64,000 nucleotides of DNA, from IMG/VR virus record IMGVR_UViG_3300032007_000017; one strand, written 5' to 3'. Origin of the DNA: a virus (Duplodnaviria; Caudoviricetes). Each line of letters starts with the position of its first letter. Positions within the stretch are counted from its first letter, which is position 1. The notes beneath the pieces are model-generated. The model was not told where the DNA came from. It worked only from the letters and a program-made list of their open reading frames with translations, and ran no database searches. Shown in pieces: positions 25,733 through 50,615 of the stretch. A program made the position numbers and the translations under genes.

Positions 25733-26854
25733 TCATTTCATAGCTTTTCCAACAGCATTAATTGTTTGCAAAGTTCCATATGAAACCTGTTGATTGTTTT
25801 CTATAATAGCCTTTGCAAGTGCTGCTTCCTCATTATGACGATCAGTATCACGTATCTGATTAATACGTTCAATCATTTCGTCCTGAGAAATATCAAACTC
25901 AAGCGGAGATCTCAAGAAAGGATACTTATACTTTCTATTGAACTCTGCCCTCTCCATAACTGCTTCATGATCAACATATTCACCATCCTGATATTCAATA
26001 AACGGATGATAATAGGTCTTATCAGAAGCAAAGAACTTAAAGGGATTTCTAAGGAAAGGTTGAGCTTTGATTTTAGGAATCTTCATGAACTTAAGAGCTA
26101 ATCCAATTGTCTTTAGATAAGTCGAAAGGATTTCAGCTCCAATGTTTCGTGAATTGTTTTCAAGTTGAATGTCTACATTATATGGGTTGTTTGTCATTGC
26201 AGATTCACAAAGCATTCTAGCTTCAGGAGAAGAAGAATACAACATGAGAACCTGAATTACCAAGTCAATACCCATATGGCTCAGATCACCTAATTCCATG
26301 TCTCCGAATCTAATCGGAGTTCTAGAGAATTGAGCCTTGTATACTTTACTAGCCTTATTACGACTATTCTCATTCTTGATATTAGTTGCAGAAAGACTAG
26401 TAACTGAGAATTTCTCTTCTGCATGCTGCTTCAATCTATAATAATACACATATCCGCAGACAACAGGACGACGAGAAGTGACATATCTAATATTTCCGTT
26501 GGAGTCTTCAAGAGGCATAAGAATATGCTCTTGCTGAATCCAAGGAAATGCGTGTTGTAAAGCTCTGATAGTCTCCAAAGAAGGAGTATCAGTGCCAGGA
26601 TCTACATTGATATACAGCATTCCATCATCAATGATACTACTGATATATTGGGCAACTGTATCATCAGAAGCATTAGAGATAAACTCAGAAAGTACCTGAT
26701 ATTCTTTAGGAGATACAATCTGATAGAATGTCAGAATATTTCTGATATTATCTTCAATACTACTAAATTCATTGCATAATGATTTTACGATATTTTTAGC
26801 CTTATGTGTGTAAGACAGTTCAAATAGCTGACCGCCATTTTCACGTCCGTATAC
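25733..26854 (-). CDS. Non-virion RNAP beta subunit C-terminal part, exon 3
   Basis: VYGRENGGQ completes DIQVNMCG|VYGRENGGQ (bacterial DIVLNPLGVPSRMNIGQ); GYVYYYRLKQH, RFGDME. Confidence 0.9.
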   Translation of the reverse strand, partial: VYGRENGGQLFELSYTHKAKNIVKSLCNEFSSIEDNIRNILTFYQIVSPKEYQVLSEFISNASDDTVAQYISSIIDDGMLYINVDPGTDTPSLETIRALQHAFPWIQQEHILMPLEDSNGNIRYVTSRRPVVCGYVYYYRLKQHAEEKFSVTSLSATNIKNENSRNKASKVYKAQFSRTPIRFGDMELGDLSHMGIDLVIQVLMLYSSSPEARMLCESAMTNNPYNVDIQLENNSRNIGAEILSTYLKTIGLALKFMKIPKIKAQPFLRNPFKFFASDKTYYHPFIEYQDGEYVDHEAVMERAEFNRKYKYPFLRSPLEFDISQDEMIERINQIRDTDRHNEEAALAKAIIENNQQVSYGTLQTINAVGKAMK

Positions 26855-27255
26855 CATATTTTACAAATTATAATATTATAATTTATAAAATCTTTATCTA
26901 TATTCGTTAGATATAGATATAGTCATATAGACTATCTCATACTTTCATATGAGTGGAGATCATTTGTTCATCCTATTTCTAGGAGTCGGATTTTTCGAAC
27001 TCACTTAAGTCCTACTCTCCCGCAAGGAGATGACCGTTGAACCTTCACCATTTTACAGGTGAGTGGCTGCTAAACACCCATTTACTATCATTTAGGATTT
27101 GACCATGTGATAATCCTAATCTCTTTTTTCTGCTTTCGCAACTATCACGCTTACTGTTTCCAGTTACGTTGTAGTGGATTAGGCTTTAGGGTTTCAAAGC
27201 AATTAACCCGAAGTACTTGCATATTACTATACAAGCAGTGCATACTTTAATTTAC
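26855..27255 (-). ncRNA. Group I intron (ORF-less, 401 nt) in nvRNAP beta-C; boundaries may be shifted by 2 nt (26853-27253)
   Basis: Minus strand: P TTAATTGCTTTGAAAC, Q TTTAGCAGCC, R GTTCAACGGTCA, S AACAAATGATCT; P2 and P9 GNRA hairpins; removal restores the frame and a conserved motif. Confidence 0.9.
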
Positions 27256-28365
27256 ACCACACATATTGACTTGAATATCAACAACTTCACCGTCATAGGT
27301 TTTAGGCATCAGATTATCGGGTTTAACCCTAGAAATGACACCTTTACCCCCATAGCGGTTGGTCAACTTGTCGCCAGCACACGCTTTGATATTTTCAACA
27401 ACGGTAATGGTGATTACAGTACCGGAGAATACCCTCTCATTCAAGAACTTATCACCTTTCAGCTCTGCTTGACAATTGCTGTAAAGCTTCTGAAGGTCAT
27501 AAGTCATAGATACATGAGATCCATCTCCACGATATTGATCTACTACATCAACAATTTCTTGGCACATACGCATATGCTCTGCATGATACCTAGCAATCTG
27601 TTGATAGTAGATCTCATCAAAGACTTCAGGATTATTACATTGCACATCAATATCGACTACTTTACCAAAGACGGTAATCTTCTCGTCAGACATAAATGCA
27701 GTAGACAATCTATTGAAGTCTTGAGAATAGAATGCTTCTTCTTTTTTCTCTTTGCGAACAGCACAGAGAATATCATCTTTTGTCATCTCTCCAATATCAG
27801 GAAAGATCTTATAATTATTTGCATCGCCAAAGAGATTCAAAGGAATATCATTTACGTTGAAAGTGATATTAAACTTATGGATCAAAGGAGATGCAAGCTT
27901 TTCAGAGGCTGATTCAGAGATAATGATAGAGTCTTCCATTGTCTCTTCAGAAGCATTGAAGAGAACGAGAAGATTCTTACCATCCATTCTGTTATTGTAT
28001 TCATCAAATGCTCTTGATTTGTGAAGAACGGTTCCCTTAGGAACCCCTCCTCCAACTACAATAGCATCAAGCTCTGTATTATCATTGATGTATCCAAATG
28101 TTTCAGTAATATGCTGATATTCGGATCTTTCAATAACATCAAGCTTTTTACCACTCTCATCTAAGAGAATGATATAGTAGTGATCATAAGGACGAGAACT
28201 ATACTTAGGAATAATTCCTACTGCAGTATAATCCTGATCTGCTATTCTAAAAGAAGATGAATACTGACCAAACTGATTTTCAAAACCAGTAGATACATAG
28301 GGGACATCTGGATTACATAATGCCAATCTCTGCTCAAGGTTAGTTGAGAACATTAACTTCCGCAC
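27256..28365 (-). CDS. Non-virion RNAP beta subunit C-terminal part, exon 2
   Basis: RKLMFSTNLEQ, GKNLLV, EDSIIISES, GDKLTNRYGGKGVISR. Confidence 0.9.
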
Positions 28366-28560
28366 CATATTCTATAGTATTGTAAAATACTCTAGTTCCT
28401 AGTTCACTGAATCCCTACTAGTTTAATACTAGATTTCTTATACTAATATTTCCGGAAGTTACACAAAAATACTAATATAAGAGCGGAATTCTCCGAAGGC
28501 TTAAACTCCCATGTATGGATCATGGTACATAAACACAGCAAAGTATAGAGAACTCTTTAC
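28366..28560 (-). ncRNA. Putative TnpB omegaRNA scaffold
   Basis: Directly downstream of tnpB: TATGTACCATG..CATGGGAGTTTAAGCCTTCGGAG..long hairpin..GGGATTCAGTGAACTAGGAA; resembles right-end RNAs of Firmicute TnpB elements as I recall them. Confidence 0.65.
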
Positions 28561-28564
28561 TTAT

Positions 28565-29821
28565 TTATGCTATGTCTTTAAGTAAGAGTGTTTCTCTTCC
28601 CTCGGAAGTAACTAGGGGTTGTTGATATGCCAAATTCCGTAAATTATAAGCGGCATTAAGGTCTCGATCTTCTGTATATCCACAAATTGGGCATACAAAA
28701 GTTCTATAGCCATTAATATAGTAACCCTTAGATCCACAATGACTACATTGTTTTGAAGATGGAAAATATTTATTAGCAGTAATGACAGGAATATTTCTCC
28801 ACCTAGCTTTATACTTTAGCTGACGATGTATTTCACAATACATCATTTGATCATTATATGATCGTAAAGCATAATTATTGTGAAGCTGTTCATTAACAGA
28901 AATCGACTCGATTACTATTGCTTCTGGATTTCTATCAACAATTTCTTTTGTGGCTTTATTGATGTCATTTTTGCGTATATTTACCATCTTTTTAATGAGC
29001 TTAAGGCGTTTATTTTTTCGCTTATAATGATTTATAGATTTTGGCACATCCTCGTACTTGGTTCTCGTAGCGAGTCTGATCTTATTATACTTTTCATAAT
29101 CCTTACTTAATCTACGATCTAATTTTCTTCTACGTTGCTCAAGCTTTGATGTATCAGTAAATTTGTAGAATTTACCATATGAAGTTGTGATCATATTTAT
29201 AAGTCCTACATCAATACCAACAGGTTCAGTTTTTGGTTTATCTTCCATAGAAATATGTGTTTTATCATAATTTTCATATGAAGCCCCAAACCAAAAATTC
29301 AATCCATCATAATGAACTGAACAACGATAGAATTTGGTTCCTTTAGGAATTTGATGATCTTTTGCAAGTACCTTCAAATCCTTAATACCAGAAATGCTAA
29401 TATAATCTCCTATAACCCTAGTTCTATCGTGTCTAGGAGAAAAAGACCTGGATTTATATTCATTTTTTCTAGACTTAAACTTTGGGTATCTGTTTGGATT
29501 CGATTTATCAAAAAATCCTTGGAATGCTTTATCTAGATGGTCAAGGGTTTCTCTCATACATCCAACAGTTGATTCCTTAAGCCATTTATATCTAGAATCA
29601 TGATTCCGCATATTAGCAAATTTTGTTATTAGATCATAGTAGCTAATGTATGGATTTCCATCAGCATGATTATTATTTTGTATCTCAAGACCAAGATTAT
29701 AGATAGCTCTAGCCAATTGAATTTGGCGCATAAGCTGTTTTGCTTGCTCTTCTGTAGGATAGAGCTTAATTCTGACGCCTACAAGATTTTCCTCATTTAC
29801 ATTAGGTGGTTTTCGACCCAT
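28565..29821 (-). CDS. tnpB: TnpB RNA-guided nuclease
   Basis: HTH KLYPTEEQ, YPKFKSRK, RuvC-I GIDVG, RuvC-II IVIESI, Zn finger CSHC..CPIC, RuvC-III DRDLNAAYNL; RBS AAAGGAGG before ATG 29821. Confidence 0.93.
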   Translation of the reverse strand: MGRKPPNVNEENLVGVRIKLYPTEEQAKQLMRQIQLARAIYNLGLEIQNNNHADGNPYISYYDLITKFANMRNHDSRYKWLKESTVGCMRETLDHLDKAFQGFFDKSNPNRYPKFKSRKNEYKSRSFSPRHDRTRVIGDYISISGIKDLKVLAKDHQIPKGTKFYRCSVHYDGLNFWFGASYENYDKTHISMEDKPKTEPVGIDVGLINMITTSYGKFYKFTDTSKLEQRRRKLDRRLSKDYEKYNKIRLATRTKYEDVPKSINHYKRKNKRLKLIKKMVNIRKNDINKATKEIVDRNPEAIVIESISVNEQLHNNYALRSYNDQMMYCEIHRQLKYKARWRNIPVITANKYFPSSKQCSHCGSKGYYINGYRTFVCPICGYTEDRDLNAAYNLRNLAYQQPLVTSEGRETLLLKDIA

Positions 29822-30215
29822 CGAATACACCTCCTTTCTATAATGATTTACATATTAGTACGATGAATATTATTTTACAATACTTTCGAACACCTTTGTC
29901 TATATTCGCAACTTATAGACCCTTTCGGCTCATACTTTCATATGAGTGGAGATCATTTGTTCATCCTATTTCTAGGAGTCGGATTTTTCTTCCACCATAA
30001 GCTTGTGGTTCTACTCTCCCGCAAGGAGATGATCGTTGAACCTTCACCATGCTAATCGTTTAGGTGAGTGGCTGCTAAACATCCCAATCTCTATACTTTT
30101 TATATCCATCACGCTTATCGTTTCCAATTACGTTGTGGATATAGAGCTCTAAGGGATATGTCAAAGCAATTAACCCGAAGTACTTATAGATTACTCTATA
30201 AGCAGTGCGCTATAC

Positions 30216-30320
30216 ACCGGAGTTTGTGCAGTTGAATGGCATTAAGGTTCCTTTACCAAAAAGATGTTCTGGTGTAGGAAGTGGTGCATTTCTAATCTGT
30301 TCTACAAGTTCACTTGCCAT
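30216..30320 (-). CDS. Non-virion RNAP beta subunit C-terminal part, exon 1 (35 codons; spliced protein ~778 aa)
   Basis: RBS AAGGAGG, then MASELVEQIRNAPLPTPEHLFGKGTLMPFNCTNSG; absent from the ORF track. Confidence 0.85.
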
Positions 30321-30438
30321 GATTTATTCCTCCTTCATGTATTGTGCAGTTGAATGGCATTAAGGTTCCTTTACCAAAAAGATGTTCTGGTGTAGGAAGT
30401 GGTGCGCTTCTAATCTGTTCTACAAGTTCACTTGCCAT
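30224..30438 (-). repeat. 97-bp tandem duplication of the RNAP beta-C gene start
   Basis: 30224-30320 and 30342-30438 differ at 2 nt; each copy has its own RBS. Confidence 0.95.
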
Positions 30439-30522
30439 AATGAAATCTCTCCTTACATGTGTGCGTCATTTAAGAAGAAGCCAGTCTAGAAATGTGTCTA
30501 TTTCTAGACTGGCTTTTGATTA

Positions 30523-39172: not shown

Positions 39173-39790
39173 TGATGATCACAGGGTTTTACCCCTGTGA
39201 TCATCATTGCAAGAAGAGACGTGGATGCTTGATAAAAGCAACAGGATATAAGAAATCAATCTAACCCTAATAAATTGTTTATTCTTTAAAAATAAAAATA
39301 AAGGTGATTAGAGGGGAAAGATTCCCCTCTAATCTATAGAAGATTGTGAAGACATGATGATCAAGCAATTAACAACGTCTTTTCTTGCATTTTCATAAGA
39401 TTAAACTCCTATATTCATTAAAGCGATAGACTCGCTAAAGTCTTAGTTTTACTTATGATAAAACGAGTATCGCTTAGATCATCCTAATAAAATGTTAAAG
39501 ATAGGGAGCATAGAGCTCCCTATCTTTATGCCTTTGTTATACCTGTTAGAAAAAGCAAATGATACACTTTTAAACAGAAGATAGACGAATTGGAAATCCT
39601 AGACGATGTTTTGCCTTTGTTGCCGAGAAGAATTACTTGGTAGCATATGATACTTTCGTTTTACCAGTGGGGCGATGATATGATTACATAAACTCTATAG
39701 AATTCTAATTATATTTTCTTTTATAAGCGATAACTTCGCTAAAGGTTAATTAGATTATATAGAAGGTATCATATCATTTTTTCAAATTCC
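39173..39790 (-). ncRNA. Three tandem candidate structured ncRNAs with mutual complementarity
   Basis: Promoter motifs at 39268-39279 and 39485-39496; hairpins at 39173-39206, 39306-39334 and 39496-39528; shared CTTTAGCGA-N5-TCGCTT motif; no ORFs. Confidence 0.5.
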
Positions 39791-48532: not shown

Positions 48533-49685
48533 AAATATGTGTTGCTGTCCGGCCCAGTGGTGACACTGGTGAACAAAATCCCTTTAATTGCTGGAAACTC
48601 CTTACATCAAGCAAACTACAACGTGGCTAGCAATAGCGAGCGTGAATGTTTGAAAATTGCTTGATTTGGACAATCAGCAGCTAAGACCAATTATAATACC
48701 ACTATTTAAAGAAAGGAGTATAAAATATGTATTATCCATTTATAAGAAATGATATACAGTGGAAACCAATAACTGATGATATGGTACCAAATATAGAAAA
48801 AGATAGATATCTGATTTCTAATGCTGGTACGATATACGATAAATTACAAGATAAAATACTAAGTGTCCATAATTGTGGCGAAGGATATTTAAGTGTATCT
48901 CTTGCAACTATTGATGAATCTGGTTTAAGACACCGTAAAGGAATGCTTGTCCATCGTTTAGTTGGAATGGCATTTATTGATGGTGATTGGAATAAACAGA
49001 TTAATCATAAAGATGGAGATAAAGTTTATTGTGAAGAAGAAAATCTAGAGTGGGTTACACCAAGAGAAAATTTAATGCACGCTTTAGATATGGGTCTTCA
49101 TAAATCCGGCGGAGATAGAATAACGTCACATTTGACAAATGAACAAGCCGTTATTGTTAAACAAGACTTAGCTAATAGAATGACTATTAGCCAGATACTA
49201 AATCACATAGGTCTTGAAGATAATAAAAGAAATAGGGGTTTGATCATTGATATTAAACGTGGAAAAACGTATACTAGAGTGGGCACCGATATATCATATT
49301 CTGTCGAAAAATTATGTGAACGAAGACTAGATAGAAATACTGTAATACAGATATGCGAATATATGCAAGCAAATCCGAATATTACATATGGCTATTATAG
49401 TAGACTTATTGATATGCTTGGGATACCTTGCTATAATCAAGAAGAGCGTTCAATGATTAGAAGTATGATAGGTAGTATTTATCGTAGAAAAGCATATACT
49501 GATATATCTAAAAATTATAATTGGTAAAGTTCAGAGACTATCGAAATGGCGAATAATATTCGTACAGAGTAGAGTAGGATTGTATGATTGCATAAGTTGC
49601 TCTAAATTTATGCAATCATATGATTCGAAATGGGGGACTCTCATATATGTATATGAGATGAAGATATAGTCCAACCGCCTGAAAG
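48533..49685 (+). mobile_element. Group I intron in gyrB with an HNH homing endonuclease in the P6 extension
   Basis: P1 CCGGAT/GTCCGG with U-G at the splice site; P AATTGCTGGAAAC, Q AATCAGCAG, R GTTCAGAGACTA, S AAGATATAGTCC; ends in G; removal restores DADPD|GKHI; ACCAATTATAAT/ATTATAATTGGT stem flanks the ORF. Confidence 0.92.
48727..49527 (+). CDS. NUMOD4-HNH homing endonuclease (I-HmuI-like)
   Basis: WKPI..YLISNAG, VHRLVGMAFI, INHKDGDK..NLEWVTPREN. Confidence 0.9.
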   Translation: MYYPFIRNDIQWKPITDDMVPNIEKDRYLISNAGTIYDKLQDKILSVHNCGEGYLSVSLATIDESGLRHRKGMLVHRLVGMAFIDGDWNKQINHKDGDKVYCEEENLEWVTPRENLMHALDMGLHKSGGDRITSHLTNEQAVIVKQDLANRMTISQILNHIGLEDNKRNRGLIIDIKRGKTYTRVGTDISYSVEKLCERRLDRNTVIQICEYMQANPNITYGYYSRLIDMLGIPCYNQEERSMIRSMIGSIYRRKAYTDISKNYNW

Positions 49686-50615
49686 GGTAAACACATTCGA
49701 TCTCTTCTTTGTAGACTCTTCGTCGTGTATTTTCCGAAATTCATTGAAGCTGGAAAAGTATATGCTGCTGTACCTCCTCTCTTTGGTCTATATCAAGGAG
49801 GTAAAGTAGTACAGTACTTTACTGACAATAATGAAGTATCTAGATACGTGAAAGATCAGTTTACAAAAAGATATGAGCTTAGAGATAAAGATACTGGTAA
49901 GAAGCTTACTAGTAATGATATCATTAAGCTCTTCTCTACAAATCTAGATTATGTAGAACTTCTGGAGAATACAGCTAAAATTGTTGCTGTTCATCCGAAA
50001 CTTCTTGAGGATATTCTTATTCAGGTCGCTGATGATATTGAACTTACGGTTGCACGTACCAAGCACGCAGCGGCAACAAAGGCAATGATTAGCATGAGTA
50101 TGGTTAATCAGGATACTCTTAAGGGTATGATTGATACCAATGTCAGTTTCTCTTTGAAGAAGCTCAATCTCAAGGCTCTTAAACAGAGACTTGAGAAAAA
50201 GTACAGATTCATTAAAGTTGATATTGACAATGGTAATATCGTCATTAGAGGTCTTGTATACGAAAAGACTCAAGAGATTGCAATTGGGCCTAGGTTTATC
50301 AGTAGCTGCTATGATGTCATTCATCTTCTCAGCAAGAATGAAAGAACTTATTTCAGTGTCAATGGAGAGACAAAGTCCTTGTATGAAGTCATGATGCTTG
50401 TAGCAAAACTGTTGCCTAATCTGAAGAGATACAAAGGTTTGGGCGAACAGAATCCTGATGAGCTTTATGATAGTACAATGAGTCCAGATGGACGTGTGCT
50501 TCTTCAGTATACAATGCAGAGTGCTAAAGAAGAGATTGAGAATATCAGAATTATCGATAATGATAGATCTGCTATTCTGAAAGGTCTCTCTGTTACACGT
50601 CAAGATATTGAATAA
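49686..50615 (+). CDS. gyrB: Gyrase subunit B, exon 2
   Basis: GKHIRSLL..PPLF..RYKGLGEQNPDEL; in frame with ORF 49725-50615. Confidence 0.9.
   Translation, partial: GKHIRSLLCRLFVVYFPKFIEAGKVYAAVPPLFGLYQGGKVVQYFTDNNEVSRYVKDQFTKRYELRDKDTGKKLTSNDIIKLFSTNLDYVELLENTAKIVAVHPKLLEDILIQVADDIELTVARTKHAAATKAMISMSMVNQDTLKGMIDTNVSFSLKKLNLKALKQRLEKKYRFIKVDIDNGNIVIRGLVYEKTQEIAIGPRFISSCYDVIHLLSKNERTYFSVNGETKSLYEVMMLVAKLLPNLKRYKGLGEQNPDELYDSTMSPDGRVLLQYTMQSAKEEIENIRIIDNDRSAILKGLSVTRQDIE

Follow-up and report, generated by a model that had tools for sequence, protein, structure and literature searches.

Two IStron-type group I introns in a jumbo-phage RNA polymerase gene probably retain the terminal G and depart from the 5′ splice-site rule instead

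The 64,000-nucleotide stretch of phage DNA analysed here (IMG/VR record IMGVR_UViG_3300032007_000017, Duplodnaviria; Caudoviricetes; hereafter the window) carries on its minus strand a gene for a phage multisubunit RNA polymerase beta-like protein (Pfam RNA_pol_Rpb2_6, Rpb2 domain 6) that is interrupted twice. Judged by their sequence, both insertions are IStron-type group IA2 introns, in which a group I ribozyme is fused to IS605/IS607-like cargo; in the first (intron 1) tnpB is intact and accompanied by a presumed omega-RNA, but tnpA is missing, and the second (intron 2) is a cargo-less derivative. A first-pass annotation of the same DNA had proposed that these introns end in U instead of the terminal G (omega-G). 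We conclude that both most likely splice as GGUG^U....UAUGG^U (a caret marks each splice site), with omega-G as the last intron base, and put the probability of this reading at about 0.83. It draws on homology, on covariation, on the limits of conservation and on the exon junctions of relatives, which together indicate where cleavage should fall in this phage. The rule that is actually broken lies at the other end: the 5′ exon ends in G and the U-G pair sits one base inside the intron, an arrangement that the literature already records for IS607-type IStrons. One of the firmest rules of ribozyme chemistry would have fallen had these natural group I introns ended in U; on the evidence assembled here, theirs is not such a case.

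The ambiguity has its origin in the flanks. On the minus strand both introns are preceded by GGTGT and have AATATGGT at the 3′ end. At intron 1 the 5′ flank ..CCGGTGT is followed by ATAGC and then GCACTG, and the 3′ end ..GAATATGGT by GCGG; at intron 2 the flank ..GTGGTGT is followed by a 12-nucleotide (nt) loop and GCACTG, and the 3′ end ..AAATATGGT by ATAC. All the strings quoted in the first-pass annotation (GGTGT, GCACTG, the 3′ ends, the P7 strands, J8/7 GAACAAA, the CCA after P7 and the P10 complements) are found on this strand, its length of 401 nt for intron 2 is correct, and the GT at both ends of both introns is real. Because GT is present at both ends, the splice sites can slide with the mRNA unchanged. 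The annotation had recognised this for two registers, GGU^GU...AUAUG^GU (register A) and GGUGU^...AUAUGGU^ (register B), but GGTG^T...ATGG^T, in RNA letters GGUG^U...UAUGG^U, makes a third that yields the same mRNA. It was also right that some textbook rule is broken whichever register is chosen, since no register satisfies all of them. The third register keeps the terminal G together with a P9.0 of two base pairs (bp), and it is the only one that fits the relatives.

Those relatives comprise 12 elements at nine independent insertion sites: metagenomic jumbo-phage IStrons (TnpB identity about 55%), CboIStron of Clostridium botulinum, SrISt1 of Selenomonas and the intron of Staphylococcus phage PMBT8. 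Across this set the 3′ end is conserved through ..UAUGG (CGG in Clostridium and Selenomonas, UUUG in PMBT8), after which conservation stops, and the last element base is G in 12/12. The base that follows reads U, U, C, C, A, U, C, U and G over the nine sites; as it differs by site, it is exonic, and the GT duplication is no special property of the element. The duplication is a coincidence, made up of exon G(-1) plus intron U(+1) at one end and omega-G plus an exon that starts with U at the other. The first-pass annotation had proposed homologues at sites without the duplication as a check on its terminal U, and there the elements end in G with a variable base behind it, which gives a terminal U no support.

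The 5′ end is equally consistent. The first element base is U in all 12, and exon position -1 is G in 11/12 and A in 1/12, always paired with the second guide base (G-C eleven times, A-U once). Exon position -2 covaries with the guide as U-A, C-G, A-U and G-C. The guide base opposite U(+1) is G in ten elements and A in two (L006, 2539-2570, and L030, which is SrISt1), so there is no conserved wobble pair, and the wobble is dispensable in at least two natural copies. P1 and P10 as drawn in the first-pass annotation are real pairings that covary.

The P9.0 helix fixes the other splice site. The J7/9 joining segment is UNCA in the window copies and in five relatives; the IStrons of Clostridium and Selenomonas have UACG or UGCG there, and PMBT8 has UGAA. 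Pairing joins the final two J7/9 bases to the two that directly precede the last G, with covariation as CA/UG, CG/CG and AA/UU. A covarying P9.0 of 2 bp makes omega the second G of UGG. The 3-bp P9.0 (CCA/UGG) on which the terminal-U proposal leaned can be drawn in both window copies, but its third pair, C with the final G, is confined to them, the relatives having A or G at that second J7/9 position. Register A was correctly said to lack a P9.0: the AU before its omega has no partner in J7/9, and the covarying helix lies one base further 3′.

Three sets of intron-less alleles allow the register to be read at sites other than those in the window. In PT1-1 and SEP9, which are relatives of PMBT8, the vacant site is ..GAG CCT.., which makes the intron of PMBT8 unambiguously U....UUUG, with G at exon position -1 and G as omega; register A would make its omega a U. 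At the site in the DNA polymerase gene, the intron-less homologues of AR9, BpSp and Staphylococcus phage S6 read N-S-F/Y-Y/F-G-A-T/M, and the copies inserted there (L016 and L018) encode Gly-Ala on one condition, that the U behind GGUG/GGCG belongs to the intron and the C behind UAUGG to the exon. A register of the terminal-U type would give Gly-Val in place of the Gly-Ala of three intron-less homologues and is rejected at this site. At the L026 site, where exon position -1 is A, a 99% identical intron-less protein, P0121 (L031), reads G-I-D, as do 17/19 readable homologues, and the DNA of the vacant allele is GGC ATT GAT. As the intron-less allele has Gly-Ile where register A predicts Gly-Val, a register of that type is rejected here. 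All three tests are passed by the third register only.

Several points weigh against this conclusion. In the window itself all three registers yield one and the same mRNA, and it is homology that assigns the register. The intron-less tests depend on amino-acid conservation at single positions, and the polymerase-site homologues are only 26% identical. Individual relatives also deviate: J7/9 is UACU rather than UNCA in L005 and L006, which turns one of the two P9.0 pairs into U-U, and L022 lacks a P10 and has C opposite A, a mismatch, in P1. The favoured register also requires a group I core to choose its site with no U-G wobble at the cleaved bond.

Among the alternatives, register A survives best, and we regard it as unlikely. 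It would retain both a canonical U at the exon end, here in a U-A pair, and omega-G, as the first G of GG; the window mRNA would be unchanged, and so would that of every relative with G at exon position -1 (11/12). Beyond the failures at PMBT8, at L026 and in P9.0, it would leave exon position -1 as U, C, G or A across the family. A little less probable still is that more than one register is used, a slippage of one base being free at both window sites, where the mRNA is the same in all registers. RNA circles lacking the first or last base of the IStron BcISt1 have been found in vivo (PMC4227781), but there is no direct evidence for such mixed use, sites without the duplication demand exactness, and the 3′ site of CboIStron is used with 98% precision (PMC13521648). 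Register B is very improbable: the canonical U-G at its cleaved bond and a P1 that abuts P10 as in textbooks are set against a terminal base that would be arbitrary (C, C, A or G at other sites), a U-G that is U-A in L006 and SrISt1, the invariant G-binding G-C pair of P7, and CboIStron mutants, in which a 2026 mutational study found every alternative 3′ site that was used to end in G (PMC13521648).

If the splice sites are those of GGUG^U....UAUGG^U, the following course of events is proposed. P1 would form between exon GGUG plus intron U(+1) and the guide G-CAC-U, a pairing shown by covariation, so that the exon-final G is Watson-Crick paired to a guide C and the U of the apparent U-G pair is intron base 1. 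By homology, guanosine would attack the bond between G(-1) and U(+1). After this first step the guide G would release intron U(+1) and pair with the base at which the 3′ exon begins, forming the first pair of P10. At seven of nine sites this first P10 pair is U-G or C-G, with U-A in L006, and each window copy has a P10 complement of its own (intron 1, 3 bp; intron 2, 5 bp). The 2-bp P9.0 (CA with UG) would then bring G28365 or G26854 to the G-C pair of P7, and the exons would be joined.

The fold that underlies these assignments was examined by RNAalifold and pair counting on nine family members, with P7 added as a pseudoknot (89 pairs in all). The RNAalifold consensus contains P1, P2, P3, the P4-P6 domain, P7.1, P7.2, P8 and P9; with P7 added, 96.9% of the cells in the consensus are paired. 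Changes on both sides occur in 43/89 pairs, whereas shuffling gives 19.2 and sliding the partners gives 3-8, and the family fold is under selection. In the window, intron 1 has GAUCAU/AUGAUC as its P7 and intron 2 has GGUCAU/AUGAUC, with J8/7 ..GAACAAA and CCA after P7. The first pair of P7 is G-C in 9/9 members, its second is A-U in 8/9 and G-U in window intron 2, and the inner two pairs covary as UC/GA, CU/AG and UU/AA. The departure from GACUA/UAGUC reported in the first-pass annotation is correct to the letter but is no anomaly: with an invariant G-C atop covarying inner pairs, the odd P7 is compensatory change beneath an intact guanosine-binding pair. No family reached the gathering score in an Rfam scan of the window, where RF00028, the general group I model, missed both copies; with no usable match, the group I identity rests on homology and covariation. 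At E <= 10 the scan gave a lone Intron_gpI match on the plus strand inside exon 2, which is spurious.

The arrangement has precedents. In BcISt1, reverse transcription PCR placed splicing after G, the following U being missing from ligated exons but retained in full-length circles, and the authors described a U-G pair displaced by one position, with a loop after it (Tourasse et al. 2014, PMC4227781). CboIStron splices scarlessly, in cells and in vitro, at TGGG^U...UCGG^ (Zedaveinyte et al., 10.1101/2023.11.20.567912), and the pairing of G(-1) with C is stated explicitly in a 2026 review (PMC13565253). What the present comparison contributes to this known 5′ splice-site exception is evidence from nine independent sites, with clean covariation, and a relative outside the IStrons that has the exception too. 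Intron ends in this family should be annotated as U....GG.

The window introns resemble the group B (IS607-type) IStrons BcISt1, CboIStron and SrISt1 in several features. An IA2 ribozyme stands at the 5′ end (core identity 78-80% to CboIStron, on the C. botulinum BKT015925 plasmid, and to SrISt1, on a Selenomonas plasmid), the cargo follows P9.2 within an AU-rich inverted repeat, and tnpB is followed by conserved 3′ RNA up to the 3′ splice site; the exon-final G is paired to C, the intron begins with U and ends in GG, and ORF-less derivatives (those without an open reading frame, ORF) exist. Unlike group B, the phage copies have no serine-recombinase tnpA, although IStrons without TnpA are already known (PMC4227781), and the window TnpB shares only 29% identity with CboTnpB. 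The phage family has GGYR (GGUG, GGCG, GGCA) as its 5′ flank and group B has (A/T)GGG; the 3′ end is UAUGG with a CA/UG P9.0 in the former and CGG with CG/CG in the latter, so that, of the target and end by which group B is recognised (a GG-ending site, a CGG end), the phage copies share no more than a terminal GG and the G^U junction. The P1 loop measures 5-18 nt as against more than 70 nt, and the host is a jumbo phage whose essential replication and transcription genes are the targets.

The GGYR flank is conserved beyond what P1 needs, position -4 being always G though mispaired in 5/9 elements, and it would correspond to the target-adjacent motif of TnpB. Elements without tnpA would spread, as the literature proposes, when RNA-guided homing carries them into vacant alleles in co-infecting phages.

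The non-IStron relative is the intron of the major tail gene of PMBT8 (MK893987; L001), an endonuclease-carrying IA2 intron about 76% identical from the guide sequence to P7. It likewise has a P1 with a 5-nt loop closed by U-G, an exon-final G, an intron-first U, omega-G and a 2-bp P9.0, but its protein ORF lies in P8, it has no tnpB, its P7 is GACUAU/AUAGUC and it ends in ..UUUG. It occupies 1495-2633 of its record, as GAG^U...UUUG^CCT. Since this endonuclease intron splices after G, a non-U 5′ splice site is not confined to IStrons. Core identity to the IA2 introns of Twort/K-like Staphylococcus phages is 73-76% over P3-P7, for many such records. In Twort orf142-I2, a ribozyme of solved structure, the cleavage site carries the canonical U(-1)-G pair. 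We offer, tentatively and at somewhat less than even odds, the broader suggestion that the G(-1)/U(+1) arrangement is a trait of a whole IA2 ribozyme lineage and no side effect of IS607 target choice. This lineage would span endonuclease introns (PMBT8) and TnpA-less jumbo-phage IStrons with a GGYR flank, its cleaved bond being picked by helix geometry and not by the U-G wobble, with a single guide G pairing first with U(+1) and then with the base that opens the 3′ exon.

The coordinates of the locus are collected in Table 1. The exon 2 reading frame is unbroken only with the junctions given there. The exon 1/2 junction is confirmed by L005, a relative that is intron-less at this first RNA polymerase site and reads N-S-G-T-R-K with no indel; the exon 2/3 junction is the same in relatives.

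Table 1. Exons, introns and intron parts of the RNA polymerase beta-like gene (window coordinates)
Feature	Position	Strand	Remarks
Exon 1	30215..30320	-	ATG 30320-30318; final G at 30215 in the favoured register
Intron 1 (1850 nt), TnpB-carrying, IStron-like group IA2	28365..30214	-	U30214 first, omega-G28365 last
Intron 1 internal guide sequence GCACUG	30203..30208	-	strand of P1 and P10; P1 covaries in the alignment
Intron 1 P7 5′ strand GAUCAU	30029..30034	-	G30034 is the G of the G-binding G-C pair
Intron 1 P7 3′ strand AUGAUC and J7/9 UCCA	29947..29956	-	AUGAUC 29956-29951; UCCA 29950-29947; CA at 29948-29947 is the 5′ half of P9.0
tnpB, 418 amino acids	28565..29821	-	from ATG 29821; Pfam OrfB_IS605, HTH_OrfB_IS605, Cas12f1-like TNB
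Region 3′ of tnpB: presumed omega-RNA scaffold and intron 3′ terminus	28365..28564	-	conserved blocks shared by every TnpB-bearing relative; UG 28367-28366, 3′ half of P9.0; G28365 is omega-G
AU-rich inverted repeat, 3′ arm	28370..28389	-	partner 29871-29890
Exon 2 (1110 nt)	27255..28364	-	first base U28364, last base G27255; Pfam RNA_pol_Rpb2_6
Intron 2 (401 nt), ORF-less sister copy	26854..27254	-	U27254 to omega-G26854
Intron 2 parts	internal guide sequence 27241-27236; P7 27035-27030 and 26963-26958; P9.0 26955-26954 with 26856-26855	-	
Exon 3	25733..26853	-	first base U26853; junction ..C-G-V^Y-G-R-E-N..

Within intron 1, the CAC of the guide pairs with exon GUG, and the first guide G has intron U(+1) as its partner in P1 and the opening base of the 3′ exon in P10. 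TnpB has its RuvC D/E/D and four zinc-finger cysteines intact, the alignment invariants being D207, E308, D390, C362, C365, C380 and C383. Downstream of tnpB the blocks shared by all relatives run until conservation ends after ..TATGG, and by analogy with CboIStron (10.1101/2023.11.20.567912) this region would serve as the omega-RNA. The arms of the AU-rich inverted repeat (20 nt, 90% complementary, 1481 nt apart) loop out tnpB and the downstream RNA, and a repeat placed around the cargo fits the inverted-repeat stem that has been reported in IStrons (PMC4227781). Long blocks of intron 2 are identical to intron 1, and after its P9.2 a local AU hairpin of 15 bp stands where intron 1 has its cargo. 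The 3′ domain of intron 2 folds as P9, P9.1 and P9.2 plus this hairpin and leaves AUGG free (z = -5.8). Both introns are expected to self-splice, and TnpB and its presumed omega-RNA are predicted to be active.

A protein search with the intron 1 TnpB returned many homologues, about 45-57% identical, on long metagenomic contigs. Throughout, these relatives have the ribozyme-tnpB architecture, never with tnpA; neither the window nor L005-L026 has a serine-recombinase tnpA ORF between ribozyme and tnpB, and none of the nine phage relatives has a tnpA. L005, L006 and L007 have a TnpB-bearing copy at the second RNA polymerase site, where the window has the ORF-less intron 2; the L008 copy lies in a beta′-like gene, those of L016 and L018 in a divergent DNA polymerase gene, that of L022 in a terminase-like gene and that of L026 in an unnamed gene. 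IStron-type introns with TnpB and without a transposase are thus found in conserved motifs of essential jumbo-phage genes (RNA polymerase beta- and beta′-like, DNA polymerase, terminase-like). Other searches drew blanks: megablast of exon 3 against phage records, a 20-nt exact word from J8/7-P7 against viral and genome contigs, and a TnpB peptide pattern against viral contigs all gave no match. The L008 beta′-like site had no intron-less homologue in the window or the collected loci, and L026 had no match in the phage collection, its intron-less alleles having come from the large protein search.

Some of these loci have features of their own. The proteins of L026 and L031 are 99% identical, yet 44/921 nt differ, and the synonymous differences cluster round the insertion site, at 3′ exon positions +1, +4, +7, +10, +13 and +19 (the presumed guide target of TnpB); such a pattern would fit an allele escaping RNA-guided cleavage or, alternatively, a co-conversion tract. 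In L016 the same DNA polymerase gene holds a second, canonical IA2 intron at about 1800-2070 (P7 GACUAU/AUAGUC), which ends 29 nt upstream of the IStron and leaves a 29-nt micro-exon.

Exon 1 of the window gene is duplicated in tandem, 30342-30441 matching 30224-30323 (100 nt, 97% identity). The upstream copy begins to diverge about 10 nt before the insertion site of intron 1 and leads into a short ORF whose end overlaps the start region of the real gene; the duplicate may be a scar of recombination or homing. L008 has a comparable duplicate of the end of its own 3′ exon.

A different group I intron lies on the plus strand at about 49500-49710 of the window. This is the one that the first-pass annotation called the gyrB intron and to which it had rightly ascribed the usual P7 (GACUAU/AUAGUC) and J8/7 (GAAGAUA), and it has no sequence-level relationship to the IStron pair. 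Motif matches at 2666-2675 and 39365-39373 are not introns. Further along, between 57600 and 63600, the plus strand holds very long repeat arrays of the CCACCxCC type, Gly-rich if read on the minus strand, which form 3-4 paralogous units of about 1.4-3.4 kb each.

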